Assembly: GCA_044892525.1 (NCBI GenBank)
Contig: CM097885.1
Span: 620,001 to 684,000 of the forward strand
Direction: 5' to 3'
Origin: Schmidtea polychroa
Taxonomy: Eukaryota
DNA length: 64,000 nucleotides
The translations under genes and the position numbers were made by a program. This document shows positions 50 to 42,028 of the stretch, piece by piece. Positions within the stretch are counted from its first letter, which is position 1. Each line of letters opens with the position of its first letter. Below the pieces are notes generated by a model, which was not told the DNA's origin, made no database searches, and worked only from the letters and a program-made list of their open reading frames with translations.

Positions 50-3000
50 GTATACTTTATCCAAATTATTGTTCATCGAAAAAACATGATAATAATTGTC
101 ATTCTATAATGGAGAATTATTACACGAAAAAATATTATAATAAAACTTATTTTATATGTCCCGTATGTAAGACTAGTAACCCTGTAACATGTAGCGTTTT
201 TTATAATAAACATAAAAATCATTTAGATAGGTTTAATTTTAAAAAAGATAGTGTTTTTAAAAGACCCTCAACTATAGAAAAAAATAATACAAATAAAAAA
301 ATTAAATTAGATACTTCTTCTTTTGAATCCCAGGTCAGATTAGAGGTTGAATCCCAGGCTGGATTGTCTTTTGTTGAATTCCAGGTCGGATTGTCTTTTG
401 TTGAATCCAATGATGGATTGGTTGTTGAATCCCAGGTCGGATTGCCTTTTGTTGAATCCCAGGTCGGATTGGTTGTTGAATCCAATGATGGATTATTCAC
501 TTCCTTTGATTCTTGGAATGGATTAAATATAATACAAATAGGTGGAAATGTATCGACAATACAAAGAGATTTAAGAGGTACCCATCAAATATTAAGTTTA
601 AATACTAGCGACTTAAATATAAAAGAAATAATATTTCCTGAACAACTAATAATAAAATTACGAGATATTATTAACGAATTAGGATCCGTCAAAATTCAAT
701 TCGGAATAACAATCGAATTTGAAAAAGACGGGTAAATAAAGGTTAATAATATATCCAATTACGCAAAACCTTTAACTGCATCATTTTTTGATCAAGGCAT
801 TAAGGAACTAAATGAGAAAATAACTAATATTACAAAGTTAGGAAGCAATTGGATTTTAAAAAATATAACAGAAATCCACTTCACTATAACAAAAATAAGT
901 AGGTTAAGTAGATTAAGTGGTAGGAGTTTCATTGAAACACCTACTTATCTAAAAAATAAATATTGTTTAATTAATATAAAAAACACTGATGATTCATGTT
1001 TTTTATATAGCATTTTAGCTATTTTAAAATATGATGAAGTTAGTATTTATGCTAGAAATAGGACATCGAGTTATAATTTATCCGACTTAGTATATAACCC
1101 GTTAGAATTACCTATGAAATTAAAAGACATTAGGAAATTTGAATCTAAAAATTCGGGTTTAATAATTAATGTTTTTTCATATGATAATAGCAAACAATTA
1201 ACTGATAATTATGTATTAAAACATTCACATTTAGATATTATAAATCAGGGGTGCCCACTAATTTTTCTAGGAGTGCTACATTCACATCCAAAATGTGTAT
1301 GCGATCTACTTTTTTAATACTTACATAATATTTACCTACAATGCAATAAATTCATCACAATAGAACAAATATATGTCAAAATATGGAAAATTAAACTATG
1401 TAACTATTTATTATAAAAAAATGTAACTTAGGAAATCAAATTTAATGAAAATTATTGTTATATAGAACTTTTGGATGTTGATGCTCTACATTGGGTTGAA
1501 TCCACTAGATTTTTGTAGTTTGTGATATAAGTGCTAAGACAACTTCTTAGGCTGGATTCCAAATGGTCATCTGTTAATGTTGCTCGGTACTTTGACTTTA
1601 TAATTTTCATATGTGAAAATGCAGACTCACATAAATAAGTTGAACCAAAAAATGATACTAAATTTCGAAGCATTTTTTCAAGTTTGAATATTTATCCTCT
1701 GATAGATATTTCCATACATTTGGTTCGGAAGATCTTGATTTAATGAAGATATCATTTTGAAGTGTGATTATTTCCATTTCAAGTATAGGGATATCCATTT
1801 TAAACAAAGTTGAGATTGAATCTGCAACAATTTCTGGCTTTATTTTTGGATTAAACAGAAAGGACATAAATGCAGCCACAATTTCAAGTTTCTTGAAGTC
1901 TTGAAAACGTCTCTCGAACTCTAAAACCAAAATTTTGATCTGTTCCGCATATCTCGTAATATTAAAGTTGACATTTTCAGATTCTTTTAATTGTGACAAC
2001 ATATTTGGAAAATAACTTAAATTTTTGTCTTTTATTTTGATAATAAGTAAATGAAGCTTTTGTATAAATGCAATGATTGAACTTATCATATCGAATATCA
2101 ATTTATCCTTACGATGTAAGTCGAGATTTAATTCATTCAGAATTGCAGTAATATCTACTAAAAATGCCAAATCCAAGAGCCAAACATCATCTTCCAATTG
2201 TTTGAACTCATCACCTCTTGCGACAAGGAACAACTTAATCTCAGAAAGCAAATCTCTAAATCTTTGTAAGAATTTTCCTCTACTTAGCCACCTTACATCT
2301 GAATGCATCAGTAATTCAGCAGGACCTTCGCTATTACTTTCTTCAATTTGTAATTTGAAAAGTCATCTCTGAAGACTTCTTGCACGAATCGAGTTAGCAA
2401 TTTTGAATGGTATTTCCATAATATCTCTCATATTCAGAATTTTAGCACACAAGGCTTGTTGATGAATAATACAGTGGTAGGAAAGAAAATCTGGGAATTC
2501 ACAATCATTCCTAAAATATGCTATAAATCCGTTGTGACGCCCTGTCATAGCTGGTGCGCCATCTGTTGTTATTGATACAAGCTTACAAATTTGGAGCTGA
2601 ATGCTGTTGGCATAAGCTTTAAAATTCTGAAATATATCCTCACCTCGAGTTTTACTTTTGAGTGGTATAATTGTTAATAATTCTTCCTTCGTAGAAAAAT
2701 CTTTAAAGACCATTCGAATAAAAATTATAAGCTGCGAAATATCAGCCGCATCAGTTGATTCGTCTGCTTGCAATGAAAATGCAGTACAATTTCCTATGTC
2801 TAACATTAACTGATATTTTAAATTGGTACTTATTTCTTGGACTCTCCGTGTAACTGTATTACGGGACAATTGCATATCAGTAATAGCAGAAATTATATCT
2901 GATTTATTTTCCACTTTGTTACACAAAAATTTAAGCATAAAACAGAAATTTTATATAAAATCTAAATTTATATAAAAAATATTTTTTTTATGAAGATCTA

Positions 3001-3960
3001 CTAAAAAATCCTTCCTATCTACCGGATAGATCGCGATCGAACTTATGGGCACCCTTGTTATACATCGTTCCTAAGTTTTAAATAGAACTGTAATTAATTT
3101 ACTACTTTTAAATAAAGGAAACAATTTCCATTACGTTGCTATAAGTAATTTAAATAGGTTACTGAATTGTGGTATCAACACTAGTTGTCCTACACGCATA
3201 CGTTCATTATGGTGCCATCGGTGTTTGAATGGGTTAAGGTATAAACAAGCACTGGAAAAACATGAAATATTATGTAAACGTAATCAATTAGGAACAACTC
3301 TTTACACTTTCCCTCAAAATAAATTATTGCAGTTTACTGACTGGTCGAAAACAGTAACTCCTCCTTTTGTAGTTTATGCCGATTTTGAGGCTATTTTACC
3401 TTCTGATAATGTTCATTTCCAACGACACATGCCAATATCTGCGGGTCTTTTACTTGTAAATAACTTTGATGGATCTAAATCTTGTCAACAGTTCATAGGT
3501 TTAGATTGCGTCGAGAGTTTTTTAAGTGCTATAGAGGATATAGCATTAAATAAGGTTCTTCCTTTGTATTATAAAATGGGTGGGAAACCTATGATTAAAT
3601 TAACGAAAATTGAACAACGTCAATTTGTAAGTGCATCTGTTTGTTATCTTTGTATGAAATCTATCGTTGATCCTGTTAGAGATCACGATCATTTTACTGG
3701 GAAATTCTTGGGTGCAGCTTGTAGCACATGTAACAAAAATAAGAAAATAAATAAAATTTTGCCTATCGTATTTCACAACTTGAAGGGATACGATATGCAT
3801 CATATACTTAAATACGGAATAAATAAATTTAAAAATTGGACTTTAGGTTGCATCCCAATAACGACTGAAAGATTTATTTCTTTGATTGCGCATTTAGGCA
3901 AAAGAATTGAATCTTATCAATTCATTGATTCTTTTTATTGTTAATGATTCTTTAGCTAAA
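50..3960 (+). pseudogene. Polinton family-B protein-primed DNA polymerase B, 5' half, with stops, interrupted by a hAT element (1246-3057)
   Basis: Splice acceptor tttatag at 43-49; CPVC zinc finger; INIKNTDDSCFLYS..HYVAI vOTU-like region; Exo I VYADFE; CxxC..RDHDHFTG..ACxxCN endonuclease-VII-like motif; Exo II FHNLKGYD; ends at junction with a retrotransposon fragment at ~3990. Confidence 0.9.
1246..3057 (-). mobile_element. hAT DNA transposon (Buster/SPIN/GTF2IRD2-like), internally deleted, broken transposase
   Basis: TIRs CAGGGGTGCCCA (1246) and TGGGCACCCTTG (ends 3057); 8-bp TSD ttataaat/ttatacat of nnnTAnnn type; transposase motifs SLQADESTD, TTDGAPAM, HCIIHQQ, VRWLSRG, STYLCESAFS. Confidence 0.93.
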
Positions 3961-5700: not shown

Positions 5701-6264
5701 AATTTTTAAATTAAAGTAAATAGTGGTTCAAAATTTGAAATTAAAGTTAATTAAGGGCTCAACTAAGTAAATTAGGGTTCAAATTTTTAAATTAAAGTAA
5801 ATATTGGTTCTAAAAAATTAAAATAAAGTAAATCAAGGTCCAAAATTTTAAATTAAATTAATGAATGGGCACAAATAACTAAATTAAGGTTCTAAAAAAT
5901 TAAAAATAAGTTAATTAAGGTCCAAATTTTAAAATTAAGTAATCAATGGTAAAAAATTAAAGTTAAATAAGTAAATTAAAGTAAGATTTTTAAATTTATT
6001 AACAATTGAAATTTTTTAATGAAAGTTTTTATGAAATAATTTTTTATGAATAATTTTTAATAGAAATTTTAATGAAATATTTTTCAATGGTAATTTTTAA
6101 TGGAAATGTTTATGAAATAATAATAAAAATAATAATAATAATAAAAATAATAAGTAGATGGATTGGGCACCGCTGGCACAGGGCACCGCTAGCACAGTAC
6201 CCCCCCCCGGTCGTCATATTTTTCAAAAATATGCTAAGTCTAAAAGTACATTTTTTAAACAAAG

Positions 6265-7010
6265 ACATATGACTCATCAAGGTCATTGAAACAAAGACCA
6301 TGACTAATAGTATGACTCATCAAATTTCTCAAGGTCATTTAAACAAAGACCGTGACTCATCCTATGACTCATCAAGGTCATTTTCAAGGTCGAATGACTC
6401 ATAATATGACTCATCAATGCCAAAAAATTTTTCAAGGTCATTTAAACACAGTCCATGACCCATCAAGGTCATTTTCAAGGTCGTATCACTCATAATATGA
6501 CTCATCAATGCCAAAACTTTTTTTCAAGGTCATTTAAACAAAGTCCATGACTCATCAAAGTCATTTCCAAGGTCATATGACTCATACTATGACTCATGTG
6601 CCCATGAAATTTTTTCCCAAGGTCATATGACTCATAGTATGTCTCACCAAAATTTTCAAGGTCATTTAAACAAAGCCCATGACTCATAATATGACTCATC
6701 AAGGTCAATTTCAAGGCCATATGACTCATACTATGACTCGTAAGACCTTGAAAAAAAATTTTCAAGGTCACCTGCCTCATCCTATGCATCATCAAGGTCA
6801 ATTTCGAGGTCATATGAGTCATACTATGACTCATCGAAATTTTTTCAAGGTCATATGACTCATCCGACGACTCATCAAAATTTTCAAGGTCATTTTCAAG
6901 GTCATCTGAGTCATGCCTTACCTCATCAAGGTCATTTTCAAGGTCGCATGACTCATCCAAGGTCATTCCCAATGTCATATGAGTCATCGCGATGAGTCAT
7001 CAAGGTCATA
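6265..7010. promoter_or_regulatory. Subterminal degenerate repeat array of ATGACTCAT (AP-1/bZIP-type) and TCAAGGTCA (NR5A/ERR-type) motifs
   Basis: Dozens of interleaved tgactcat and caaggtca copies; mirrored at ~24615-25290; function inferred. Confidence 0.6.
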
Positions 7011-7157
7011 TTATTATTTTTATAAATATTATTATTTTTATTATTATTTTTAAAAATATTATTATTTTATTTTTAATTTTTTCAAAGTTCTCGCCAACGA
7101 AAATTAATAATCGATAGCTCATTTTAAAGCTCAATCCAAGACCTTTCGAATGAGCTA

Positions 7158-7328
<171 letters not shown>

Positions 7329-7448
7329 AATCTATATACTCCGAGTCTATATACTCCTAGTCTATCCGATAAAATATTTTGTCCCCCTATGGGTAATGCT
7401 CACAAGGGTACTGGTCACGCTCAACAAATCAACAAAACATACATTTAT

Positions 7449-7946
7449 TTAAACAATAAAATAATGTAAAATTACCAAAGGTAAACTAAATATTGATGTA
7501 CTATTCGCAGCAATATTGTTTGAAATTGGTAACGTAGAATTGATTTTCAGAGATTCTATTGATCCTTTGATTGTTTGAATTTCTCTTAATAATAATTCAA
7601 TCTTTTTTAACAAATAATCATGCTTCTTATCAATTATTTTCATATTCATTTTATTTTCAACAATAGAGTTATTGAAAACCTTAATATGATCAATCAATTC
7701 AAATTTTATATTTTGTATATATTCAAATGATAGTTCATAACTGTTTTCTAAATTCTCCAATCTTTGAGATATTCTTTTTCCTGGATGCTTTGACCATTTT
7801 GGTTTGTCCAGAATATATAAAATATCCATCAACTTGGCTGTATTCGGACAAACACATATTGATTAATTAAAAGACTCCACTGTTATTGTTGTATTGTGTG
7901 AGCACACACTCGTTATAATAATTAGCAATATGAATATAGTTTTCAT
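7449..7946 (-). pseudogene. Signal-peptide, coiled-coil, C-terminal hydrophobic (GPI/TM-like) protein with one in-frame stop
   Basis: Upstream in-frame ATG gives MKTIFILLIIITSVCSHNTT..SFN*SICVCP..; C-terminus NSTSIFSLPLVILHYFIV. Confidence 0.6.
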
Positions 7947-8051
7947 GGTGTATCAAATCAAAACCTTTCTTTTACATTTATAGTCTATCAACCAATCAAA
8001 ATCATCCGGTATTAGTATAAATAAAACATCATATTTTAAATTATTGTAAAA

Positions 8052-8572
8052 ATGTCTCAATTTATGGAAAATCTTTTAAGAGAACTCGTCAACAGGAATA
8101 TTATGGAAAGCCTATGTTTCCTGGTCGATCGGACCGAAAAGATTATAGAAGGTAATCACATTGATTATGAAGATGTGATCAATTCTGATTGTCTCGAAAC
8201 CAAAAAATTCTATTTTAATAGAATTTTTAACTGTCTATGCGACGATCAGATGAAGTGGACCCGAATACTAGTAGGGTTCGCTTATATGAAAATAATAATC
8301 CAAAGAAGTCTATGGGACTCAGAGCACTATTATCAGTGGTCTCAAGAAGTAATACTTTTATAATTTATATTTTATTAATATTTATTTTCTAGATAATCAA
8401 GTCAAAGTTTCAACCATGGATTGAAGCCAATGGCGGATGGGGAGTACTCAATCAACTCGCCAGAAATGCGAAGGAAATTGATGATCAGAAAAGAAAATTT
8501 AAAAACTATGTAAAACTTGCAACAGGTGTTGCTATTTTGTATATTTTAACCAGATTTTTAAATAAAAATTAA
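8052..8572 (+). CDS. Viral Bcl-2 family protein, 2 exons (8052-8348, 8393-8572), 158 aa
   Basis: BH1-like LCDDQMKWTRILVGFAY; 44-nt GT-AG intron; exon 2 gives BH2 PWIEANGGW and tail anchor YVKLATGVAILYILTRFLNKN. Confidence 0.88.
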
Positions 8573-8655
8573 TATAGTTATTTTTGTTTGATTTTTAAAT
8601 AAATTTTTAAATAACATTTTAAATAAATTTACAAACACTAATTAACTAAGATTTA

Positions 8656-9053
8656 TTAATTAACACATTCGCAGTCGTCATCTCCACATTTCATTATATT
8701 TTCAACGACATGATCAATACAATCATTCGTAATATTATCTTTAGATTCATCTTTAGGTTCCTCTATAGGTTCCTCTATAGGTTCCTCTATAGGTTCATCT
8801 ATAGGTTCATAGATTTCCTCATCAATTTCTTGAGTATCGGTTTCTTGAGTTTCTTCCTCAACATCAAATCCTGTATCTTGACTCTCAACTAACCAGCCGA
8901 TATTTAAGGCATTTGTAATAGATAATATGTCCTCAATTTTCACACCAGATATTTCTGCTAACTTTTCCCACAAAAAGTTGATTAAAAATTCTAAATAATA
9001 AATAATTCGGTAATTAATTAATCATGTTAACCTTTTTCTGCAGTCATTTTCAT
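8656..9053 (-). CDS. Small acidic protein (EEPI repeats), 2 exons
   Basis: In the mirrored copy exon 1 22693-22714 (MKMTAEK) splices in frame to 22756; highly Asp/Glu-rich. Confidence 0.65.
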
Positions 9054-9179
9054 CACTTTAAAACTATATTATAATTTTGTTTATAGATTTTCTTTGTTAA
9101 ATTTGCATGTCATTTGCATTTATGTTGCAATTAATAAAGAGAAAAACAAATCTGACTAATACATTTATTAAATATAATA

Positions 9180-9590
9180 TTAAAATATTTGTGAAAGTCT
9201 AGCAGACATAATTTTCCAAATAGGAGAATATACATCATTATTATCAACTTTATATCCCTGGATTGCTATTGTTATATACCAATTTTCATTTTCTTTGAAA
9301 CTGATTTCATCAAAAGCATCATAAAATCTTGCATATCTATTGTTGAACCATGCATGTTGATTACACGATAGATTCGAATCTATCCGTTTAAAAACATCAT
9401 CAATAGTTTTGACATCAATCATTGAAAGCGTGCCGGATAAGAATTCGAATTTAGTCGGAATTAGCTTGACTGGTGCAACCAATTTCATATTGATTTCTTC
9501 TTTCAAAAAATACATTTTGTAGTTGTGGAACATTTGAACTGGTTGTACCATTTCTTTAGGTTTTTCGGTGCTTGAAATTTTCTTGGTCAT
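9180..9590 (-). CDS. Putative OB-fold ssDNA-binding protein
   Basis: Intact 136 aa in both arms; C-terminal ITIAIQGYKV..YSPIWKI pattern resembles viral gp2.5-like SSBs (recognition by eye). Confidence 0.5.
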   Translation of the reverse strand: MTKKISSTEKPKEMVQPVQMFHNYKMYFLKEEINMKLVAPVKLIPTKFEFLSGTLSMIDVKTIDDVFKRIDSNLSCNQHAWFNNRYARFYDAFDEISFKENENWYITIAIQGYKVDNNDVYSPIWKIMSARLSQIF

Positions 9591-9870
9591 CGTGAATAAT
9601 GAATAAATTTAAATGTTACAGGGTTTTTATACCTTTGACTCATGCCTATCAACCAATCAGATTACAGTATGTCTTTGTTTAAATTTGCATTTCATTTGCA
9701 TTAATGCTGCATTTATGTTCTATTAATGTACATATTATTAATGTTTTATTATTACTATCATTATTTCTATTATTATTATTTCTAATTCTATTATTTATAT
9801 TATTATTATTATTATTATTATTTCTAATTCTACTTTAAATATAAAAAAAAAACTCAATACAAAAATACAT

Positions 9871-10285
9871 TTATTGATATTTATCTACAATCCGGGAGTA
9901 GTGAAACCTTCTCAGAGTTTTCACTAACTCCCATTCCACATATCGCCGATATCGATCGGCACAGCAGGAACATCCGAACATATATTGATATTCCGGCTTC
10001 ATTTCTTTCACTGTTCTGTTAATCTTTATATCCCATAAGAATTGATGGAATACCTCCATAATTCTTATTTGGGTTGAGTAGAAAATGAGGTCCGGAATTA
10101 TTTCTGCTTCTCGATCCTTGATGATTTCAATAATTTGAGGATAATAGTATTTGAGTGTATTGATCATTACATCTAAATATTTTTCTAAAATAATAAATAG
10201 TAAATAATGTGAAAATAAAAATTTAAAATTTACCGTAATCGTCGATATCCTTCATGAGGTTTGCAGAGCTTGGTAATTTGTACAT
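9871..10285 (-). CDS. Hypothetical protein, 2 exons (MYKLPSS..DDY/EKYLDVMINT..CSCC..)
   Basis: 49-nt GT-AG intron joins in frame (mirror copy exons 21453-21504 and 21554-21867). Confidence 0.7.
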
Positions 10286-10360
10286 GATGTTGAAAAAAAA
10301 TGAATTCTAAACAAAAACCGTTTGTTTAAATCAATCAATAACCAATAAGAAATTAACCAA

Positions 10361-10798
10361 TTAGAAATCGACCAATGAAATTATCTCATTTCGAACATTG
10401 TCAACAAATTCTCTATACTCCAAATTTCTCAACCCCAACATGACAACCTTTCCACTAGCAAACACGTTGACACATATAGGGTTATATTTTATTAGTCTTA
10501 GTGCCGGAAACAATTCCGGTTCAAACATACAATCACATTTTTTCGACATGTTATATAGATTGATACTATGTCCCATATCCATAGTAACGGTAATTGATTG
10601 GATTGTAATATTATTTATTCGATATTGTAATTTATTAATATCCAAAGGTTTCTTACATCCCATGATTCGGCATTTACCAGTCTTGAAAAATATTATCGGA
10701 TATTTCCCACTTCTATCGATAATTTGCTGGGGTTTCCCTGGTGGAAACCTCATATTCGATACATCAAAATTTCCTCGATAATTTATATTTGCTAACAT
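10361..10798 (-). CDS. TATA-binding-protein-like protein (minimal two-repeat core)
   Basis: Repeat 1 IIFFKTGKCRIMG; repeat 2 IQSITVTMDMGHSINL..FEPELFPAL..VFASGKVVMLG matches TBP signature YEPELFPGL..IFxSGKVVLTG. Confidence 0.88.
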   Translation of the reverse strand: MLANINYRGNFDVSNMRFPPGKPQQIIDRSGKYPIIFFKTGKCRIMGCKKPLDINKLQYRINNITIQSITVTMDMGHSINLYNMSKKCDCMFEPELFPALRLIKYNPICVNVFASGKVVMLGLRNLEYREFVDNVRNEIISLVDF

Positions 10799-10897
10799 TA
10801 CTAAATCATTTATGAAAATTAGTCTTTATATATAAATTGAGCACGAGTTCATTAAATCATCGAATATAAACAAATACACATTTATAAAATCTTTGAA

Positions 10898-11523
10898 ATG
10901 GAATTAAGAAATGATGCTGTATACCAAATCGTTGGTCCGAGTGGTAGTGGAAAAACATTATTTGTTTGTAAATTACTAAAATCCAATTTATTAAAATCAA
11001 AATTCAACAGGATTTATTGGCATAGGGGTGCTGATGAAGAACATGGATTAACTCAATCAAGTTTCTGTAAATTAAAAAACATGAAAATAGTAAAGGGATT
11101 CGATAAAAACTGGTCCAGCCGATTAAAGAAAGGCGATGTCATTATTATCGATGATTTGTATCAAGAAGCTAATAAAGAAAAAGATTTTAATAATTTATTT
11201 ACAAAGACTAGCAGACATGTCGGTGTAACAGTTATTTTCATAACTCAAAATCTATTTCATCAAGGTGGGCACATCAAACACGTAATTTAAATGTACAATA
11301 TTTAGTCATTTTCAAGAATCCTAGAGATGCAACAGTGATTGATTTTCTTGCACGTCAAGCATACCCTAACAATCGTAATTTTCTTATCAGCGCATTTCAA
11401 GATGCTACAAAAATACCTCATGGATATATATTTCTTGATTTCACACAACAATGTCCCGATGATTTACGTGTAAAAACAGATATTTTCAACCCAAAAGGTG
11501 CCATGGTTTATAAACAAAGTTGA
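10898..11523 (+). pseudogene. A32/FtsK-like genome packaging ATPase, one frameshift near 11275
   Basis: Walker A GPSGSGKT, Walker B IIIDD, SRH, ITQNLF, then FKNPRD..PHGYIFLD. Confidence 0.92.
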
Positions 11524-11541
11524 AAACCTCTATGAATAATA

Positions 11542-11754
11542 ATGTTTCTAAAAGCAAGGGTGAAAAATATTAAGAAATTAAGAAAAGGTATTAGAAAGAC
11601 TATTAAAGTTCCAAAGGTTCCACCAACAACTAGTTATACACCATCTAAAAAACTTGTAACTGAAAATTTTTCTGCAATGAATCTTATTTCGAAAAATCCT
11701 AAACCTAAACGTAAAACCCGTAAAACCTGTAAAACCGGTAAAAAAGTAGTTTAA
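11542..11754 (+). CDS. Small Lys/Arg-rich protein, putative virion core/DNA-condensing protein
   Basis: 70 aa, strongly basic, within the structural gene cluster. Confidence 0.5.
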   Translation: MFLKARVKNIKKLRKGIRKTIKVPKVPPTTSYTPSKKLVTENFSAMNLISKNPKPKRKTRKTCKTGKKVV

Positions 11755-11778
11755 AATCATCGCAGTTTTCCATTTTTT

Positions 11779-12075
11779 AATGCATTGTTAAAGGCTCCGA
11801 GTATGAAAAGAATGAATATATTGCAATCATTCCCAAATTTTGTTGTCGATGATTTACTCAATATTATACTTAAAGTAGTCAAAGGCAAAATTAAAATCAG
11901 TAAATCAAAAAAGCATTTATTGAGCAAACATAGGAAACCTTTATTATCTTTAGTAAATAATAAAAATCGTAAGCAAATGAGGAAAATTATATATAAACAA
12001 CAAGGTGGATTTATTGGTGCATTGATACCTCTGGCATTATCATTATTAGGTGGAGTTGTAGGAAATCAATCATAA
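11779..12075 (+). CDS. Basic Polinton protein with GG cleavage-like site and amphipathic/hydrophobic C-terminus
   Basis: KQQGGFIGALIPLALSLLGG; in-frame ATG at 11779. Confidence 0.65.
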   Translation, partial: NALLKAPSMKRMNILQSFPNFVVDDLLNIILKVVKGKIKISKSKKHLLSKHRKPLLSLVNNKNRKQMRKIIYKQQGGFIGALIPLALSLLGGVVGNQS

Positions 12076-12136
12076 ACAATGGGTGCTAATCCTTCATTGC
12101 CCGACATAAAATTTAATTTTAAATCTTCTTGTTGTA

Positions 12137-13257
<1,121 letters not shown>

Positions 13258-13261
<4 letters not shown>

Positions 13262-14274
13262 ATTTTTATACTATTTTGCCGAGCAATAGTTGTCCATTAA
13301 TTCATCCAGACAATTAAGCAACCAAATTCATCATCGAACTCCAAAACCCCATCTATTTGGATAATGACTGGGATGTTGCTCTGTTGGATTTTACATTTGT
13401 ATACAATTTATTCCCGATCTATAGCAAATCCGTTATTGAATATAATAAGAAAGTAGCAGTAACGGAATATATTAGTGTTCTTATTGATAAAGATAGTTAT
13501 AACTTGACGAGTTCATCAAAATCAAGGAAACCTATAATTTATGATGATGGTCAATATTTATACATGAATTGCTTGAATAAGCCATTCGAAATTATATTTT
13601 CTACAGTGGCTGATGCTAAACGTCTTGGATTTACTGATTTACGTAATGTATTTAATGATACAGTCAAAATAAATCTCTCTACACTTCCAAAATCTAATAA
13701 TTTAGTGGAATTCAAATTTAAGCTGTCATACATTGAAATAACAGAGCATGCATATACTTTTAAAGATAATTTATATATTACAGACCTCGAACAATTACAA
13801 ACTTATTTAGGTGACAATTGTAGCGATATTTTAACAGTTTTTGAGCTTCAAAAAGATAAAGTATTTAGATTTAGTATAAATTCTAATCTTAGTCAAGTTA
13901 AATTTGACTCAAATTTGGCAAAAACATTAGGATTGACTAAACCAGTATGTACACAAAATGAACAAATTTGTGAAGGAACAAACAAACCGAAAATCCTTAA
14001 ACATCATCAGCAAATGTTCATTTACAGTAATATCGTGGAACCAGTTATTGTTGGCGATTCTAGTGTACCTTTAATGAAATCTATATGGATTGAAAAACAT
14101 GATCAAGATGAAGTTGTACAAATCAATGTAGAAAATCCCATGTATCTACCTGTTTCAACATCTTGTATAAACAATATAGAAATAAATATAAGAGATGATT
14201 CTGGTCAATTAATCTAATTTCCAAAAGGCTCAAAAACTCATTTGACATTACATTTTCGTAAAATAAATGGCTAA
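13258..14274 (+). pseudogene. Minor capsid protein (penton), two in-frame stops
   Basis: N-terminal FYTILPSNS..WDVAL; C-terminal FIYSNIVEP..VGD..PL..YLPV..IEINIRD..G..LHFR. Confidence 0.85.
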
Positions 14275-14635
14275 TTCTGATATTATTAGTATGTATAGTG
14301 GTAGCCAATCTGGTGGTGAATTACCATATTTTATTGGTAAACAGTACGGATCAGGATGGTTGAGAACAATTGGTAGATTTGCATTGCCTATTCTTAAACG
14401 TATTGGTAGTTTTGGTATGAAAACTGCAAAAGATGTTATTATGAATGAACAGAAAATATTACCATCTCTAAAAACAAATGCTTTAGCAGAATTAGGGAAA
14501 GTTTTACCCGGGGTTGCAGGTATGTTTCAAAAAGAAAAACCTCCAGCTCCAGCTCCAGCTCCAAAACGTAAAAGACATGGAATATCACGTATAAACAAAC
14601 GAATGAAAGGACATGGAACTATATTTGCAAAATGA
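14267..14635 (+). CDS. Conserved small Polinton virion protein (Gly motif plus amphipathic helix)
   Basis: QSGG..PYF.GKQYGSGWLRTIGRFALPILK; lies between penton and MCP. Confidence 0.75.
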   Translation: MANSDIISMYSGSQSGGELPYFIGKQYGSGWLRTIGRFALPILKRIGSFGMKTAKDVIMNEQKILPSLKTNALAELGKVLPGVAGMFQKEKPPAPAPAPKRKRHGISRINKRMKGHGTIFAK

Positions 14636-15855
14636 TTTGTGGTAAATCCGAATTATGTATATTTGATAGACCGTCGCCCCAGGCTGTAATAGAATTTGGG
14701 GCATTTGAGGAAGTTTTTCCTATGAATTCAATTACCGATAGTAGAAATGATATCGAGTTTTATATTAATGGTTCACAAACCGAATATTTAGATTTGAACG
14801 ATACTTTATTGACTGTTCAGATTAAGGTTGTAGATAAAGATAGAAAAGTTTTGGATGCCAATGCAGATGTAATACCGAACAATTTCCTGTTTCATACTCT
14901 TTTTAAAGATGCAGTGTTGGGATTTAATAATATTAAGATTGAGGGCGGAAATAATACATTCATTCACAAGGCATTAATAGAAACTATTTTAAATTACAAT
15001 TCCGATACTAAAAATACCTGTCTTACACCTATGGGCTATGCAGCAGCAGATGATGAAAGAAAAAAGTGGGTAAAAGGCTCAAAGGTTTTCACCATGTGCT
15101 CATCGTTACAACTTGATTTTATGGATCAACCGAAATATTTACTACCGGGGGTTAATGTACATATTAGACTGAAAAGGTCTGATTCTGCATTATCTCTTAC
15201 TAGTGCAACTACTACACCAATATGTCAATTAGTTGATGCAAAATTATTGGTGAGAAGAGTTCGAGTAGACCCCTCAGTATTAGCAGGTCATCAATTGGGT
15301 CTTAATTCAAAACATGCAATTTATCCATTAAAAACAAAGGAAATTGTACAATTTGCTATTGCTAAAGGTGCTTCATCATTCTATAAAGAACAAATATTTG
15401 GTGACAGAAGAATGCCTAATTTTATTCTGATAACATTTCAAAGTGAAGCACAATATAATGGATCATATACTGCGTCCAGCTCAATTTTCAAAAACTTTGG
15501 TGTTACATCATTGACTTTGTCGAAAAATACTGATTATAGAGAAACATATATTCAAGATTTCGAGAATGACAATTACTGCGCGACATATATGCAGAGTATT
15601 GTTAGAAATATGGGTTATTTAGATAAAAATTTGAATTGCGGAATAACACTAGAAGATTTTAAAAGCAAATACCCATTTTTTACATTTGTTTTAGCCCCTG
15701 ATTTTGATTTAAATCAAAGTCAATTACCTCAAAATGGAAATTTACGACTGGATATAAAGTTTGCAAAAGCTATTACTGAACCAGTACATCTTATAATATA
15801 TGGAGTATTTGAAAATGAAGTTCAAATTACTGCAAATAGAACAGTGTTGGTATAA
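14632..15855 (+). CDS. Major capsid protein (double jelly-roll), intact 407 aa
   Basis: KSELCIF, YLDLNDT, QPKYLLPGV, GNLRLDIKFA motifs typical of Polinton MCP. Confidence 0.92.
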   Translation: MICGKSELCIFDRPSPQAVIEFGAFEEVFPMNSITDSRNDIEFYINGSQTEYLDLNDTLLTVQIKVVDKDRKVLDANADVIPNNFLFHTLFKDAVLGFNNIKIEGGNNTFIHKALIETILNYNSDTKNTCLTPMGYAAADDERKKWVKGSKVFTMCSSLQLDFMDQPKYLLPGVNVHIRLKRSDSALSLTSATTTPICQLVDAKLLVRRVRVDPSVLAGHQLGLNSKHAIYPLKTKEIVQFAIAKGASSFYKEQIFGDRRMPNFILITFQSEAQYNGSYTASSSIFKNFGVTSLTLSKNTDYRETYIQDFENDNYCATYMQSIVRNMGYLDKNLNCGITLEDFKSKYPFFTFVLAPDFDLNQSQLPQNGNLRLDIKFAKAITEPVHLIIYGVFENEVQITANRTVLV

Positions 15856-15899
15856 ATGTATACAGAAACATAAAAAGTTATCATGGAGTAAGTTGTTTT

Positions 15900-16266
15900 T
15901 ATACTCTGGATTTATTTAAATAGTTCTGTTCAGGTCAATAAAATCGGAAAACAGATATTGGGAAATGAATTTGTTGGAGTTTTTCCTCTTGATAAAATTC
16001 CATATTTGAGCAATAATCAAGCAATAATCGTCAATACTCAATAGTCTCATCTTGGTGGAGAACATTGGATAGCTATATATGTGAAATCTGGTAATATATT
16101 CGTGTTCGATCCTATGGGTTTTTATTACCCAGCTTTGTTGATATCAAAACTACAAACAATGGGGAAACCTATTGTGTATAATAAAACTATTTTTCAAAAT
16201 CCCTTGACCCAAACATGTGGTCAACATTGTTTAGCTTGGTTATTGTACAAAAAATTTGATGTTTAA
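15900..16266 (+). pseudogene. Adenain-like cysteine maturation protease, one stop at ~16041, start uncertain
   Basis: FVGVFPLD..IVNT..GEHWIA..FDPMG..Q..TCGQHC. Confidence 0.88.
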
Positions 16267-16731
16267 TAAAATTTTATGTATCCTTTCCTTTGTTGTTGTG
16301 ATTATTATTATTATTAATATTATTATTATTAATATTATTAATATTATTATTAATATTATTAATATTATTATTATTATTAATATTATTATTATTGTGAAAA
16401 ATATTATTATTTTTAATTAATTTTATTATTATTCGAATAAATATTATTATTTGTAACATAAAGACTGCCTTTGCCTGAAGCATGCACAGTGCAAGTTAAC
16501 AAAGGCATGACTAACAAAGACAGTCACATGTAATTTTGAGTGATTTACATTACATACATGCATGCGTGTGATTGGTTGAGAGAGTAAAATATTCAATGTA
16601 TATGTGTGTGTGTCTATATTCTCATTGGCTGGGACAGGAAAATATTCATTCTCTTTATAAACATTGACAAATCTAAAATTTGTCACAATTATTTTGAAAT
16701 TTTGAAAATCAATTTGAAAAAAAAAACCAAA

Positions 16732-20913
<4,182 letters not shown>

Positions 20914-20940
20914 AGACTAATTTTCATAAATGATTTAATA

Positions 20941-21376
20941 ATGTTAGCAAATATAAATTATCGAGGAAATTTTGATGTATCGAATATGAGGTTCCCACCA
21001 GGGAAACCCCAGCAAATTATCGATAGAAGTGGGAAATATCCGATAATATTTTTCAAGACTGGTAAATGCCGAATCATGGGATGTAAGAAACCTTTGGATA
21101 TTAATAAATTACAATATCGAATAAATAATATTACAATCCAATCAATTACCGTTACTATGGATATGGGACATAGTATCAATCTATATAACGTCGAAAAAAT
21201 GTGATTGTATGTTTGAACCGGAATTGTTTCCGGCACTAAGACTATTAAAATATAACCCTATATGTGTCAACGTGTTTGCTAGTGGAAAGGTTGTCATGTT
21301 GGGGTTGAGAAATTTGGAGTATAGAGAATTTGTTGACAATGTTCGAAATGAGATAATTTCATTGGTCGATTTCTAA
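20941..21376 (+). pseudogene. Second TBP-like copy, 2-nt deletion frameshift at ~21189
   Basis: tataacgtcg versus tataacatgtcg in the left copy. Confidence 0.88.
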
Positions 21377-21452
21377 TTGGTTAATTTCTTATTGGTTATT
21401 GATTGATTTAAACAAACGGTTTTTGTTTAGAATTCATTTTTTTTTCAACATC

Positions 21453-21867
21453 ATGTACAAATTACCAAGCTCTGCAAACCTCATGAAGGATATCGACGAT
21501 TACGGTAAATTTTAAATTTTTATTTTCACATTATTTACTATTTATTATTTTAGAAAAATATTTAGATGTAATGATCAATACACTCAAATACTATTATCCT
21601 CAAATTATTGAAATCATCAAGGATCGAGAAGCAGAAATAATTCCGGACCTCATTTTCTACTCAACCCAAATAAGAATTATGGAGGTATTCCATCAATTCT
21701 TATGGGATATAAAGATTAACAGAACAGTGAAAGAAATGAAGCCGGAATATCAATGTATGTTCGGATGTTCCTGCTGTGCCGATCGATATCGGCGATATGT
21801 GGAATGGGAGTTAGTGAAAACTCTGAGAAGGTTTCACTACTCCCGGATTGTAGATAAATATCAATAA
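21453..21867 (+). CDS. Mirror copy of the 2-exon hypothetical protein
   Basis: One residue difference (Y/C) from the left copy in the ORF track. Confidence 0.7.
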
Positions 21868-21914
21868 ATGTATTTTTGTATTGAGTTTTTTTTTATATTT
21901 GAAGTAGAATTAGA

Positions 21915-21948
<34 letters not shown>

Positions 21949-22155
21949 TAAATAATAGAATTAGAAATAATAATAATAGAAATAATGATAGTAATAATAA
22001 AACATTAATAATATGTACATTAATAGAACATAAATGCAGCATTAATGCAAATGAAATGCAAATTTAAACAAAGACATACTGTAATCTGATTGGTTGATAG
22101 GCATGAGTCAAAGGTATAAAAACCCTGTAACATTTAAATTTATTCATTATTCACG

Positions 22156-22566
22156 ATGACCAAGAAAATTTCAAGCACCGAAAAACCTAAAGAAATGGTA
22201 CAACCAGTTCAAATGTTCCACAACTACAAAATGTATTTTATGAAAGAAGAAATCAATATGAAATTGGTTGCACCAGTCAAGCTAATTCCGACTAAATTCG
22301 AATTCTTATCCGGCACGCTTTCAATGATTGATGTCAAAACTATTGATGATGTTTTTAAACGGATAGATTCGAATCTATCGTGTAATCAACATGCATGGTT
22401 CAACAATAGATATGCAAGATTTTATGATGCTTTTGATGAAATCAGTTTCAAAGAAAATGAAAATTGGTATATAACAATAGCAATCCAGGGATATAAAGTT
22501 GATAATAATGATGTATATTCTCCTATTTGGAAAATTATGTCTGCTAGACTTTCACAAATATTTTAA
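22156..22566 (+). CDS. Mirror copy of putative ssDNA-binding protein
   Basis: One residue difference (L/M) from 9180-9590. Confidence 0.5.
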   Translation: MTKKISSTEKPKEMVQPVQMFHNYKMYFMKEEINMKLVAPVKLIPTKFEFLSGTLSMIDVKTIDDVFKRIDSNLSCNQHAWFNNRYARFYDAFDEISFKENENWYITIAIQGYKVDNNDVYSPIWKIMSARLSQIF

Positions 22567-22692
22567 TGTTATATTTAATAAATGTATTAGTCAGATTTGT
22601 TTTTCTCTTTATTAATTGCAACATAAATGCAAATGACATGCAAATTTAACAAAGAAAATCTATAAACAAAATTATAATATAGTTTTAAAGTG

Positions 22693-23090
22693 ATGAAAAT
22701 GACTGCAGAAAAAGGTTAACATGATTAATTAATTACCGAATTATTTATTATTTAGAATTTTTAATCAACTTTTTGTGGGAAAAGTTAGCAGAAATATCTG
22801 GTGTGAAAATTGAGGACATATTATCTATTACAAATGCCTTAAATATCGGCTGGTTAGTTGAGAGTCAAGATACAGGATTTGATGTTGAGGAAGAAACTCA
22901 AGAAACCGATACTCAAGAAATTGATGAGGAAATCTATGAACCTATAGATGAACCTATAGAGGAACCTATAGAGGAACCTATAGAGGAACCTAAAGATGAA
23001 TCTAAAGATAATATTACGAATGATTGTATTGATCATGTCGTTGAAAATATAATGAAATGTGGAGATGACGACTGCGAATGTGTTAATTAA
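22693..23090 (+). CDS. Mirror copy of acidic protein (exons 22693-22714, 22756-23090)
   Basis: 41-nt GT-AG intron, in frame. Confidence 0.65.
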
Positions 23091-23173
23091 TAAATCTTAG
23101 TTAATTAGTGTTTGTAAATTTATTTAAAATGTTATTTAAAAATTTATTTAAAAATCAAACAAAAATAACTATA

Positions 23174-23694
23174 TTAATTTTTATTTAAAAATCTGGTTAA
23201 AATATACAAAATAGCAACACCTGTTGCAAGTTTTACATAGTTTTTAAATTTTCTTTTCTGATCATCAATTTCCTTCGCATTTCTGGCGAGTTGATTGAGT
23301 ACTCCCCATCCGCCATTGGCTTCAATCCATGGTTGAAACTTTGACTTGATTATCTAGAAAATAAATATTAATAAAATATAAATTATAAAAGTATTACTTC
23401 TTGAGACCACTGATAATAGTGCTCTGAGTCCCATAGACTTCTTTGGATTATTATTTTCATATAAGCGAACCCTACTAGTATTCGGGTCCACTTCATCTGA
23501 TCGTCGCATAGACAGTTAAAAATTCTATTAAAATAGAATTTTTTGGTTTCGAGACAATCAGAATTGATCACATCTTCATAATCAATGTGATTACCTTCTA
23601 TAATCTTTTCGGTCCGATCGACCAGGAAACATAGGCTTTCCATAATATTCCTGTTGACGAGTTCTCTTAAAAGATTTTCCATAAATTGAGACAT
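23174..23694 (-). CDS. Mirror copy of viral Bcl-2 (intron 23354-23397)
   Basis: Exon 1 translation identical; exon 2 mirrored. Confidence 0.88.
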
Positions 23695-23799
23695 TTTTAC
23701 AATAATTTAAAATATGATGTTTTATTTATACTAATACCGGATGATTTTGATTGGTTGATAGACTATAAATGTAAAAGAAAGGTTTTGATTTGATACACC

Positions 23800-24297
23800 A
23801 TGAAAACTATATTCATATTGCTAATTATTATAACGAGTGTGTGCTCACACAATACAACAATAACAGTGGAGTCTTTTAATTAATCAATATGTGTTTGTCC
23901 GAATACAGCCAAGTTGATGGATATTTTATATATTCTGGACAAACCAAAATGGTCAAAGCATCCAGGAAAAAGAATATCTCAAAGATTGGAGAATTTAGAA
24001 AACAGTTATGAACTATCATTTGAATATATACAAAATATAAAATTTGAATTGATTGATCATATTAAGGTTTTCAATAACTCTATTGTTGAAAATAAAATGA
24101 ATATGAAAATAATTGATAAGAAGCATGATTATTTGTTAAAAAAGATTGAATTATTATTAAGAAAAATTCAAACAATCAAAGGATCAATAGAATCTCTGAA
24201 AATCAATTCTACGTTACCAATTTCAAACAATATTGCTGCGAATAGTACATCAATATTTAGTTTACCTTTGGTAATTTTACATTATTTTATTGTTTAA
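23800..24297 (+). pseudogene. Mirror copy of signal-peptide/GPI-like protein, same stop at codon 28
   Basis: ATG 23800; TAA 23881-23883. Confidence 0.6.
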
Positions 24298-24414
24298 ATA
24301 AATGTATGTTTTGTTGATTTGTTGAGCGTGACCAGTACCCTTGTGAGCATTACCCATAGGGGGACAAAATATTTTGTCGGATAGACTAGGAGTATATAGA
24401 CTCAGAGTATATAG

Positions 24415-24490
<76 letters not shown>

Positions 24491-25574
24491 TTAATAATAA
24501 TAATAATATATAGCTCATTCGAATTTTCGTTGGCGGGAACTTTGAACAAATTAAAAATAAAATAATATTTTTAAAAATAATAATAAAAATAATAATATTT
24601 TTTAAAAATAATAATATGACCTTGATGACTCATCGCGATGACTCATATGGCCTTGGGAATGACCTTGGAAATTTTGATGAGTCATCGGATGAGTCATATG
24701 ACCTCGAAAAATTCGATGAGTCATAGTATGACTCATATGGCCTTGAAAATGACCTTGATGAGCCATGGGATGAGTCAGGTGACCTTAAGGAAATTTTTCC
24801 AAGGACATATGACTCATACTATGACTCATGTGACCTTGAAATTGTCCTTGAAGAGTCATAGGATGAGTCAGATGCCCTTGAAAATTTTTTTCACGGTCAT
24901 ACGAGTCATAGTATGAGTCATATGACCTTGAAAATGACCTTGATGAGTCACATTATGAGTCATGGTCTTTGTTTAAATGATCTTAAAAATTTTGATGACT
25001 CAGACTATGAGTCATATGGCCTTGGGAAAAAATTTTCATGGGCACATGAGTCATAGTATGAGTCATATGACCTTGAAAATGACCTTGATGAGCCATAGAC
25101 TTTGTTTAAACGACCTTAAAAAATTTTTTTGACCTTGATGAGTCATATTATGAGTCATACGCCCTTGAAAATGGCCTTGATGAGTCATAGGATGAGTCAT
25201 GGTCTTTGTTTAAATGCCCTTGAGAAATTTGATGAGTCATACTATGAGTCATGGTCTTTGTTTCAATGACCTTGATGAGTCATATGTCTTTGTTTAAAAA
25301 ATGTACTTTTAAACTTAGCATATTTTTGAAAAATATGACGACCGGGGCGGGGGGTACTGTGCTAACGGTGCCCTGTGCCAGCGGCGCCCAATCCATCTAT
25401 TATAATAATAATAATATATCAACCAAATACTATACAACACATAAAAAATTAACTAAACACATAAAAATAACTAGACACATAACAAAACATATAAACATTA
25501 ACTAGACACATAAAAAACATAAAAATTTACCAAACAAATAACAAATGTATATATATAAACTTTTATTTAATAAA

Positions 25575-29500: not shown

Positions 29501-30467
29501 TTTTATGTGTTTAGTTAATGTTTATATGTTTTGTTATGTGTCTAGTTATTTTTATGTGTTAAGTTAATTTTTATGTGTTGTATAGTATTTGGTTGAAATA
29601 ATAATATTATTATTAATCTATAAAAAAAAATTTCATTAAAAAAATTTACTTAAAAAATTAATACACTAAAATTTTCGTTGAAAATTATCTTAAAAAATTT
29701 TTATTAAAGATTTTCATTAAAAAATTTCAATTCTTAATTACTGACTATTATTCCAACTTTTTGTTAATAAATTTAAAAATCTTACTTTAATTTACTTATT
29801 ACTTTAATTAAAAAATTTGAAACTTAATTTACTTATTTCAGCCCATTGATTACCAAATATATCTATTAATTTACTTTAATTCAAAAATCTTAGCCCATAA
29901 TTTACTATATTTCAATTTTTAGACCCTTAATTTACTGTAATTCGATTTTTGAACCATCATTTACTTTAATTTTAAATTTAAGAACCATAATTTACTTTAG
30001 TTTAAAAATTTGAACCTTAATTAACTAATAAAAGTTAAATTATCATTTTCAATTAATATTTTACAAACATAAAATTACAATATTTGAAATTCTAAATATC
30101 TCTATTAACATGTTTGCAATTAATTTTAAAAATACAAAAATTTTACAAAATTTTCAAATTGAATATTAAATATTTTTTTAATTTGATAATGTTTATTCTA
30201 AATAAGATTTTCCCATGAGAAAATTCATATTTGTTTAAATGCAAAACTTTAAATTTAATTCTATAAAAAAAATTATTTTTCAAGACGTTTAAAAGCTCTA
30301 GGACAAGAAGAAAATACAGTTTAGAAAGGTAGTGAGTGAATTTCCTAATGAATTACAGAAGGGTATAGGACAAAGTTCCAGTTCTCTATTCTCAATTTAT
30401 CATCACTCAGCAGCAACATTGACAAAGTTTATCTTAAACAAGCTGCAAATTTATATATAAAATTACA

Positions 30468-41631: not shown

Positions 41632-42028
41632 TTTCGTTGTTCAATTTTCGTTAATTTCATCATAGGTTTTCTACCCATTTTATAATAAAAAGGAAGAACC
41701 TTATTTAATTCTATATCCTCTATAGCATTTAAAAAACTCTCGACTCAATCTAAACCTATGAACTGTTGATAAGATTTAGATCCGTCAAAGTTATTTACAA
41801 GTAAAAGACCAGCAGGTTAAAAGACCAGTCAGTAAACTGCAATAATTTATTTTGAGGGAAAGTGTAAAGAGTTGTTCCTAATTGATTACGTTTACATAAT
41901 ATTTCATGTTTTTCCAGTGCGTGTTTGTACCTAAACCCATTCAAACACCGATGGCACCATAATGATTGTATGCGTGTAGGACAACTAGTGTTGATACCAC
42001 AATTCAGTAACCTATTTAAATTACTTAT
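41632..42028 (-). pseudogene. Family-B pPolB fragment
   Basis: WCHRCLNGF..HEILC..GLDxVESFL. Confidence 0.85.

Follow-up and report, generated by a model that had tools for sequence, protein, structure and literature searches.

A short TATA-binding protein conserved in a clade of Polintons and a positioned box before most of their other genes

Results

The short TBP gene

A Polinton in the genome of Schmidtea polychroa carries a gene, TBPl, that encodes a short homologue of the TATA-binding protein (TBP). The copy described here occupies positions 6155-25399 of the window, by which we mean the whole stretch of DNA analysed (64,000 nucleotides [nt]; contig CM097885.1 of assembly GCA_044892525.1, positions 620,001 to 684,000), and canonical copies elsewhere in the genome are ~19.1 kb long, in keeping with the first-pass annotation of this DNA, which had assigned the gene to a Polinton of ~19 kb. 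That annotation overlooked a second copy of the gene within an inverted duplication. The gene, its second copy and the sequence preceding the gene are as follows (aa, amino acids).

10361..10798, (-) strand: short TBP gene (TBPl), intact, 145 aa, coordinates including the stop codon; identified by open reading frame (ORF), Pfam TBP, AlphaFold2 (AF2) model and fold match
20941..21376, (+) strand: second copy of TBPl, part of the inverted duplication, 2 bp shorter than the left copy and with a broken frame
10825..10837, no strand: palindromic TATA box TTTATATATAAAT in the intergenic region between the divergent TBPl and ATPase genes, starting 36 nt before the TBPl ATG on the (-) strand

The frame of TBPl begins with ATG and is free of stop codons. 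Its translation holds the motifs by which both TBP repeats had been recognised at first, FFKTGKCRIMG at residues 37-47 and FEPELFPAL and VFASGKVVMLG within residues 92-122, and the gene is, as had also been said, intronless and shorter (145 aa) than the ~180-aa core of a typical TBP. The Pfam search proposed in the first-pass annotation gave a match of PF00352 (TBP) at 56.5 bits, well above the curated cut-off of 22.9 (E 2.5e-15); the profile aligns to TBPl in two stretches, the better covering residues 64-125. When TBPl was compared by phmmer with PDB sequences, 35 of 36 matches were TBP chains (best E 7.6e-10), and hhalign, set to align the family profile with 13 canonical TBPs, returned a probability of 99.4% (E 1.1e-21). 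These scores put the match to TBP far beyond chance, and the original identification of the protein as a TBP homologue holds.

A saddle with one reduced repeat

The structure of TBPl was modelled by AF2 with an 80-sequence family alignment (TBPl and 79 relatives), yielding a pLDDT of 95.2 and a pTM of 0.84. Foldseek found 44 matches to the model at E<=1e-3, TBPs without exception (best 5.8e-9). VIA-align superimposed 144 of the 145 residues (1-144) on residues 164-337 of human TBP (Z 12.7, rmsd 2.6 A), and its list gives 38 TBP entries at Z>=10.8 before the next fold, at Z 6.3. The model thus has a TBP saddle spanning both repeats, and the TBP fold, whose absence had been named beforehand as reason to give up the identification, is predicted with high confidence.

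Each repeat of TBP has the plan S1-H1-S2-S3-S4-S5-H2. In the model of TBPl, residues 62-145 follow it in full, with one strand before helix 81-85 and four strands between that helix and helix 129-142. Residues 1-61 depart from the plan: they form strands only (2-10, 25-28, 35-38 and 42-48), with no helix of four residues or more, so that both H1 and H2 are missing from repeat 1. In the hhalign comparison with canonical TBPs, the loss of H2 appears as a clean deletion. TBPl is therefore, as modelled, a TBP saddle in which repeat 2 is complete and repeat 1 is reduced to its beta-sheet. Repeat 1 had been called eroded in the first-pass annotation, a description that needs correcting: the sheet is kept, and the helix-less form is a stable, conserved architecture common to 80 of 80 aligned family members.

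Canonical TBP wedges DNA with two pairs of phenylalanines, and its acidic C-terminal stirrup contacts TFIIB. The counterparts in TBPl of the residues that touch DNA or TFIIB were mapped by alignment. The alignments answer the earlier call for a check of these features in two ways. The stirrup motif is there: E-P-E-L-F-P of TBPl aligns with canonical Y-E-P-E-L-F-P, with E93 present in 99% of the family, P94 in 96%, E95 in 99%, L96 in 85% and F97 in 100%, and to judge from this alignment the TFIIB-contacting stirrup is retained. The wedge is incomplete, with three of its four phenylalanines kept (F38, F97 and F113 in 99%, 100% and 100% of the 80 sequences); the fourth, the first of repeat 1, is replaced by an invariant proline, P23, an assignment on which hhalign and BLASTP against host TBP agree. 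Also, an asparagine of repeat 2 that is nearly invariant in canonical TBPs is serine in TBPl (Ser68) and in 97% of the family.

The short TBP family and the TBP genes of the host

A search of 5.8 billion proteins brought up 112 candidates, among which 108 are relatives of TBPl; PF00352 matches all 108. Most are 144-170 aa in length, and they are 37-97% identical to TBPl. Nearly all come from metagenome and run assemblies, just one from an NCBI source. An exhaustive HMMER scan over 1.84 billion cluster representatives yielded 714 matches at E<=1e-3, of which 109 reach E<=1e-10 and 6 reach E<=1e-30. Within the 80-member alignment, P23, C43, R44, M46, G47, F97, P107, C109, N111, F113 and G122 are invariant, and nearly so are N4-I5-N6-Y7, F38, Q67-S68, T70 and E93-P94-E95 (F38, E93, P94 and E95 at 96-99%). 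The family is basic (median pI 9.46; pI >8 in 78 of 80).

The S. polychroa genome itself contains at least three further short-TBP lineages, with proteins of 154, 156 and 170 aa; their context was read in 1.2-kb pieces. Between the four in-genome lineages, pN is 0.23-0.29 against a pS of 0.57-0.76, and omega is 0.09-0.33 where dS, which is saturated, could be computed. The short TBP is under purifying selection. On the other side of the scale, the ratio among the 30 best copies of the TBPl lineage itself (15 synonymous variants to 1 non-synonymous) is biased, because those copies were picked by protein score. In a scan of the 781-Mb assembly there are at least 150 intact TBPl copies: 150 of 4167 first-look candidates were scored, and all 150 are full length, stop-free and 98-100% identical.

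The host's own TBP gene is canonical and contains introns. TRF-like paralogues are present as well, some of them intronless; among the host paralogues (loci L127, L129 and L130; also L125 and L126), three have both repeats in one frame, of 166-215 aa. The comparison with host TBP and TRF by means of a tree, proposed in the first-pass annotation, was made with a quick IQ-TREE run on 71 rows, chosen to span the match lists and omitting most of the 247 retrieved proteins, a tree in which the root and the deep placement are not settled. In it, 52 short TBPs fall on one side of a branch with SH-aLRT support of 99, and six host genes (TBP/TRF) sit among canonical TBPs. The identity of TBPl to the host paralogues is 23-33% over 69-82 aa, compared with 37-63% inside the short family. 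TBPl is not recently derived from the host TBP genes.

The element that carries the gene

Three genomic copies of the element were examined, 40 kb each. All three have a single TBP gene and the same gene order. Read with TBPl on the (+) strand, PolB, the capsid block, the integrase, o90 and the ATPase lie on the (-) strand, followed by TBPl (+), o98 (+), o136 (+), o103 (-) and o126 (+). The canonical copy, of the length already given, is bounded by terminal inverted repeats (TIRs) of ~0.9-1.15 kb with 79-93% identity. In the canonical locus L123 (7224-9998), the polymerase frame extends 925 aa further than in the window and matches phrog_1907, a DNA polymerase, at E 2.9e-21; the protein-primed family B polymerase expected of a Polinton is present, as read from this copy. 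The polymerase had no match among PDB sequences.

Similar surroundings are found elsewhere. A metagenome scan gave 179 relatives of TBPl, and 80 of these loci were kept. By tblastn, proteins of the window Polinton found on them homologues of the ATPase (27 matches), integrase (18 loci), capsid protein (12), polymerase (6) and o136 (21), with identities of 32-59% for the integrase and 26-58% for the putative capsid protein. The order TBPl, ATPase, o90, integrase, capsid block is kept down to a capsid identity of 26%. The TBP gene points toward the ATPase gene in most metagenome loci; in the S. polychroa genome the two genes are divergent. Taken with the protein comparisons, short TBPs are a conserved family of ~145-170 aa carried by one Polinton clade.

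The short family was not found in the viral contig collection (IMG/VR) that was searched with the TBP alignment. The sole match there, L031, is a canonical TBP of 182 aa (124 bits on Pfam TBP; 26% identical to TBPl). Its contig (44.7 kb, of which 20.4 kb was examined) also encodes heliorhodopsin, both subunits of ribonucleotide reductase and a split family B polymerase. The contig is similar to the mirusvirus-like elements with heliorhodopsin that PMC10675990 describes. The capsid protein and the capsid alignment had no matches in the same collection, hence no TBP-less sister Polintons were obtained from it.

Two kinds of upstream box

The boxes before the genes of the window copy, read from its sequence, are these.

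10865..10873, (+) strand: TATAAACAA box, an instance of YATAAACAW, 32-33 nt before the ATPase ATG
11510..11517, (+) strand: ATAAACAA box, 32 nt before the ATG of the 70-aa ORF
12072..12079, (+) strand: ATAAACAA box, 65 nt before the integrase ATG
14591..14598, (+) strand: ATAAACAA box, 41 nt before the ATG of the putative capsid gene

The placement of ATAAACAA is non-random, 7 of its 13 occurrences in the window lying on the (+) strand within 10866-14598. For a wider survey, the window element was combined with 34 metagenome loci of at least 3 kb. ATAAAC is the top-enriched 6-mer at -60..-16 of ORFs, found before 90 of 288 (9.1 expected, z 27; 22 in a control region). In the 33 sequences left by dereplication it precedes 91 of 273 ORFs (9.5 expected), as compared with 23 in the control region (-130..-81) and 10 inside ORFs. 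The box is most frequent at -41..-31, and the logo reads Y-ATAAAC-A-W. Gene by gene, ATAAAC lies upstream of the ATPase in 23 of 26 cases (at -60..-11), of o90 in 6 of 8, of the capsid gene in 5 of 8, of o136 in 3 of 4 and of the integrase in 4 of 17.

The TBP gene is different. Just 2 of 70 TBPl genes have the ATAAAC box; 27 of 70 have canonical TATAWA[A/T/G] instead, and 41 of 70 have neither. TATAWAW occurs at -60..-25 of the TBPl gene in 29 of 64 related loci, often in a pattern of CCAAT/ATTGG, then GTATAWAAG at -35 to -47, then TCAT near -10. (TATAAAAG is a canonical TATA-box sequence; the TATA consensus is TATAWAWR, and the forkhead site is RYAAAYA.) In the window, the genes for TBPl, o136 and o103 have canonical TATA boxes at -36 to -41, and in each of the three other in-genome lineages the intergenic region between the divergent genes likewise holds two distinct boxes. 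Most genes of the TBPl-bearing Polinton clade share a positioned YATAAACAW box ~36 nt before the ATG, one that the TBP gene almost never has.

Discussion

To our knowledge, next to nothing is known about gene expression in Polintons (Mavericks, adintoviruses), and it is usually assumed that they rely wholly on the host. A conserved TBP encoded by the element and a positioned box absent from the TBP gene make this question directly testable. The protein is also a natural experiment on TBP, a saddle from which two helices of one repeat have been subtracted and which is still under selection. The helices missing from repeat 1 are surfaces used by many regulators of TBP.

There is little room for doubt that TBPl is a selected, element-encoded protein with the TBP fold. 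What it does is a matter of lesser certainty. On the evidence of its sequence, TBPl may be an initiation factor encoded by the element for YATAAACAW promoters, a mechanism that is plausible and readily testable and that we hold to have about an even chance of being right. The host machinery would make TBPl early, from its canonical TATA/CCAAT promoter. TBPl would then bind TATAAACA boxes, the canonical repeat 2 lying over TATA and the altered repeat 1 over AACA (following the half-site orientation of TBP repeats on a TATA box). There it would recruit host TFIIB, through the conserved stirrup, and RNA polymerase II, dispensing with TFIID. The repeat-1 helices are used by TAF1, Mot1/BTAF1, NC2, Brf1 and in part TFIIA, so a TBP that lacks them would escape host regulation of TBP. 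A TFIIB protein was found that is 92% identical to a host TFIIB exon.

One may go a step further and imagine a two-step programme for Polintons in animal genomes, in which a host-type promoter gives rise to a minimal, TFIID-independent TBP that prefers virus-specific TATA|AACA boxes, boxes that would precede the packaging, capsid and other genes. The preference might come from the altered repeat 1, with the deformable C-A step of the box taking the place of the lost phenylalanine wedge. This fuller scheme is tentative, and we think it more likely wrong than right. Were it true, no natural TBP smaller than TBPl would be known, and Polintons would have their first described promoter-specificity factor.

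Several considerations weigh against a role at these promoters. We infer from sequence, rather than observe, that TBPl binds DNA, TFIIB and the box. With one wedge phenylalanine lost and an asparagine changed to serine, DNA binding may be weakened or altered rather than retuned. The TATAAACA box holds a perfect TATAAA core, which host TBP should bind, so a viral TBP is not strictly needed; ATAAACA fits RYAAAYA, so a forkhead-type factor of the host could read the box. The count of ATAAACAA over the whole window is at chance (13, with 13.5 expected). The box is not universal, as its scarcity before integrase genes (4 of 17) attests, and there is none within 120 nt of the starts of PolB, o217, o98 and o126 in the window. 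Also, the association of gene and box was surveyed in TBPl-bearing elements only.

A different use of the same protein would be as a decoy, a possibility already raised in the first-pass annotation. TBPl would titrate TFIIB or occupy host TATA boxes, damping transcription of the host or of rival elements, with a stirrup and a DNA-binding saddle but without the surfaces needed for a productive or regulated complex. The conserved stirrup (E-P-E-L-F-P, 85-100%), the missing helices of repeat 1 and the strong host-type promoter of the TBPl gene would all suit such a protein. A decoy leaves unexplained why a positioned TATA-like box should stand before genes of the element and not before the gene for the decoy; the conserved residues of the concave side and the basic charge suggest specific DNA binding; and the family is kept in very many germ-line copies, where a general shut-off would presumably be costly. 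The promoter data favour, so far as sequence can speak to function, an element-specific promoter factor, and we think a decoy unlikely.

We would rate no higher the idea that TBPl is an architectural protein, bending AT-rich DNA of the element, for instance at origins, at termini or in packaging, with no part in transcription, and that the YATAAACAW boxes are read by host TBP or a forkhead-type factor. The gene does adjoin those for the packaging ATPase and a probable single-stranded-DNA-binding protein (SSB), the box with its canonical TATAAA core would serve host TBP and also fits the forkhead site, and one wedge phenylalanine is gone. Retention of the TFIIB stirrup motif at 96-99% is, however, hard to explain for a protein with no polymerase II/III partner, and the closest relatives by sequence and fold are bona fide TBPs throughout. 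Nor does ATAAAC cluster at the termini: its instances outside the late block are those at 9077 and the mirror position 22662, no others.

Finally, that TBPl arose as a recent retrocopy of host TBP or TRF, captured by chance and decaying neutrally (the outcome that the first-pass annotation had set down as fatal to its proposal), would account for a gene that is intronless and shorter than host TBP but is rejected with near certainty by the separate short-TBP clade (support 99), the identity of only 23-33% to host paralogues, the omega of 0.09-0.33 between lineages that the proposed dN/dS comparison gave, the synteny kept across Polintons whose capsid proteins are down to 26% identical, and the helix-less repeat 1 in 80 of 80 aligned members.

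With cellular TBP, TRF and TLF (PF00352), then, TBPl shares two tandem repeats arranged as a saddle, a complete C-terminal repeat with both its phenylalanines, the E-P-E-L-F-P motif and a basic character. It differs from cellular TBP in its length (145 as against ~180 aa), its lack of H1 and H2 in repeat 1, the replacement of a wedge phenylalanine by proline and of the repeat-2 asparagine by serine, its want of introns, its residence on a multicopy, virus-like mobile element and its place in a clade apart from host TBP and TRF.

Giant viruses such as mimivirus and African swine fever virus (ASFV) encode TBP-like proteins. TBPl resembles the TBPs of large DNA viruses (giant viruses, mirusviruses) in being a virus-encoded homologue of a host initiation factor. 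Unlike the large-virus TBP L031 (182 aa, 124 bits), it has 145 aa, scores 56.5 bits and has a helix-less repeat 1, the two being 26% identical; the virus of L031 is, moreover, much larger than the TBPl element and is not a Polinton. A 2023 paper mentions TBP genes that occur sporadically among the mirusvirus-like elements in a green alga.

The first-pass annotation considered a TBP gene unexpected in an element of ~19 kb. This is not wholly unprecedented: one work was found that mentions TBP genes in polinton-related viruses, Starrett et al. 2021 (Virus Evol 7:veaa055; PMC8502044) together with its preprint, where figure legends label genes 'TBP' in genome maps of midsize eukaryotic linear dsDNA (MELD) viruses. 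Like the TBPl element, these are polinton-related viruses, of 10-50 kb, with adintovirus-like PolB. The legends belong to a section on non-animal data sets and analyse neither the protein, with its architecture and family, nor promoters; known here through those legends, the MELD 'TBP' genes are not assigned to the short family. The short architecture, the family and the promoter box were not found described in the literature consulted, which for Starrett et al. takes in the figure legends, passages of the text and section 3.4. A text search of a 2026 preprint on the diversity of polinton-like viruses found no mention of TBP or promoters. What is new here is the positioned YATAAACAW box before most genes of the element and not before the TBP gene.

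That box invites comparison with the promoter motifs of virophages and polinton-like viruses, which are likewise short and AT-rich and stand at a fixed distance before most genes. Those motifs are late promoters of the helper giant virus, read by the helper's transcription machinery in the cytoplasm. The box of the TBPl clade, unlike them, is TATA-like, and the element resides in the genome of an animal and encodes its own candidate reader. The short family, widespread in metagenomes (179 relatives in one scan) and almost unannotated, may also provide a marker gene for this Polinton clade.

The Polinton copy in the window

Other features of the window copy are listed here.

6155..10867, no strand: left arm, the TBPl-side end of the element (o126, o103, o136, o98, TBPl), repeated inverted at 20872-25399
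20872..25399, no strand: right arm, an inverted copy of the left arm, replacing the C-terminal part of the polymerase and the true polymerase-side terminus
9180..9590, (-) strand, mirrored at 22156-22566, (+) strand: o136, neighbour of TBPl, homologues in 21 loci
10898..11523, (+) strand: A32-like packaging ATPase (Pfam Pox_A32), frame interrupted (pieces 10898-11290 and 11335-11523)
11542..11754, (+) strand: lysine-/arginine-rich ORF of 70 aa directly after the ATPase gene, from the ORF list
12137..13261, (+) strand: integrase with rve core and chromodomain (Pfam), a poly-Ile microsatellite inside the ORF
13564..14217, (+) strand: conserved 217-aa ORF of the capsid block, at the position of the minor capsid/penton gene, homologues in 7 loci
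14632..15855, (+) strand: 407-aa ORF, putative major capsid protein from synteny and conservation only
19033..20913, (+) strand: protein-primed family B DNA polymerase, truncated by the inverted duplication to its N-terminal 626 aa

The copy in the window is rearranged and defective. It has a second TBP gene because, from 20872 on, the polymerase gene gives way to an inverted copy of the TBP-side 4.7 kb of the element. The two arms are 100% identical over 2585 nt. The possibility that this long inverted repeat is the true TIR, with the TBP gene inside it, was rejected, given a single TBP gene and TIRs of ~1 kb in 3 of 3 canonical copies. The symmetrical copy totals ~19.2 kb, near the length of a canonical one. 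It could be a replication product with duplicated ends, of a kind known for linear protein-primed genomes, or an artefact of assembly. No clear target-site duplication was seen at 6155/25399, where the flanks are AT-rich simple sequence.

The ATPase matches Pfam Pox_A32 at 31.5 bits (cut-off 22.8). In relatives it is a single ORF of 206-233 aa, and contigs from four runs (their kind not stated) are unspliced across the gap between the two pieces; an intron was therefore rejected in favour of a frameshift in the window copy. One run showed loose poly(A) ends (11182, 11567 and 12203) and, before 10888, a loose end resembling adapter; these were not counted as evidence. The 70-aa ORF that follows could, from its composition, be a small DNA-condensing core protein. 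The integrase assignment draws on matches that fall below their Pfam cut-offs, rve at 25.8 bits (E 1.3e-5; cut-off 32.6) and Chromo at 20.9 bits (cut-off 25.1). Trinucleotide microsatellites lie at ~12520-12650, 7150-7330 and 18500-18700, one of them read through as the poly-Ile of the integrase. The 217-aa ORF had no Pfam match, and the 407-aa putative capsid protein had none in Pfam or in the PDB sequence search. The protease region, 15856-19032, contains short ORFs only.

The AF2 model of o136 (pLDDT 90.8) has as its best Foldseek match the SSB of phage Enc34 (E 0.039, probability 0.97) and also weakly resembles CP312R of ASFV, an OB-fold SSB. On this weak evidence from the model, o136 is probably an OB-fold single-stranded-DNA-binding protein and a candidate replication SSB; its consideration as a partner of TBPl found no support in a model that weakly resembles OB-fold SSBs. 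Searches of the protein Atlas, Pfam and PHROGs gave nothing for o136. A 103-aa ORF at 8052-8363 (+) has a weak match to the Bcl-2 family (E 0.008, 17.1 bits, below the cut-off) and is preceded by a CCAAT box and by TATAAAT 36 nt before its ATG. Homologues of Bcl2 are reported in adintoviruses (PMC8502044).

Between the polymerase gene and the terminus of the canonical copy is a frame of 182 aa with a C3HC4 RING finger (L123:5878-6423, (-) strand; E 1.5e-9), a part of the element missing from the window copy. Directly behind their first exonuclease motif, Polinton polymerases here also have an insert similar to Endonuclease VII (HNH), seen at 3429-3944 (+), at 28586-29353 (-) and in L123:7224-9998 (Pfam E 3.5e-5 to 1e-3; PHROG endonuclease VII E 2e-4).

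Beyond the TBPl element, polymerase fragments of other Polinton families are found at 109-1269, 3057-3593, 29189-29503, 41661-42028, 45590-48398, 52042-52332 and 59151-60204. They are 32-53% identical to the polymerase of the TBPl element and are unaccompanied by other core genes; one fragment of another Polinton family gave a weak match to Pfam DNA_pol_B_2 (E 0.0022). The window is a graveyard of nested Polinton pieces. At 1658-2938 (-), two adjacent ORFs of 216 and 191 aa, the second with a weak match to DUF4371 (E 7.4e-5), give the appearance of a broken gene of transposase origin, unrelated to the Polinton.

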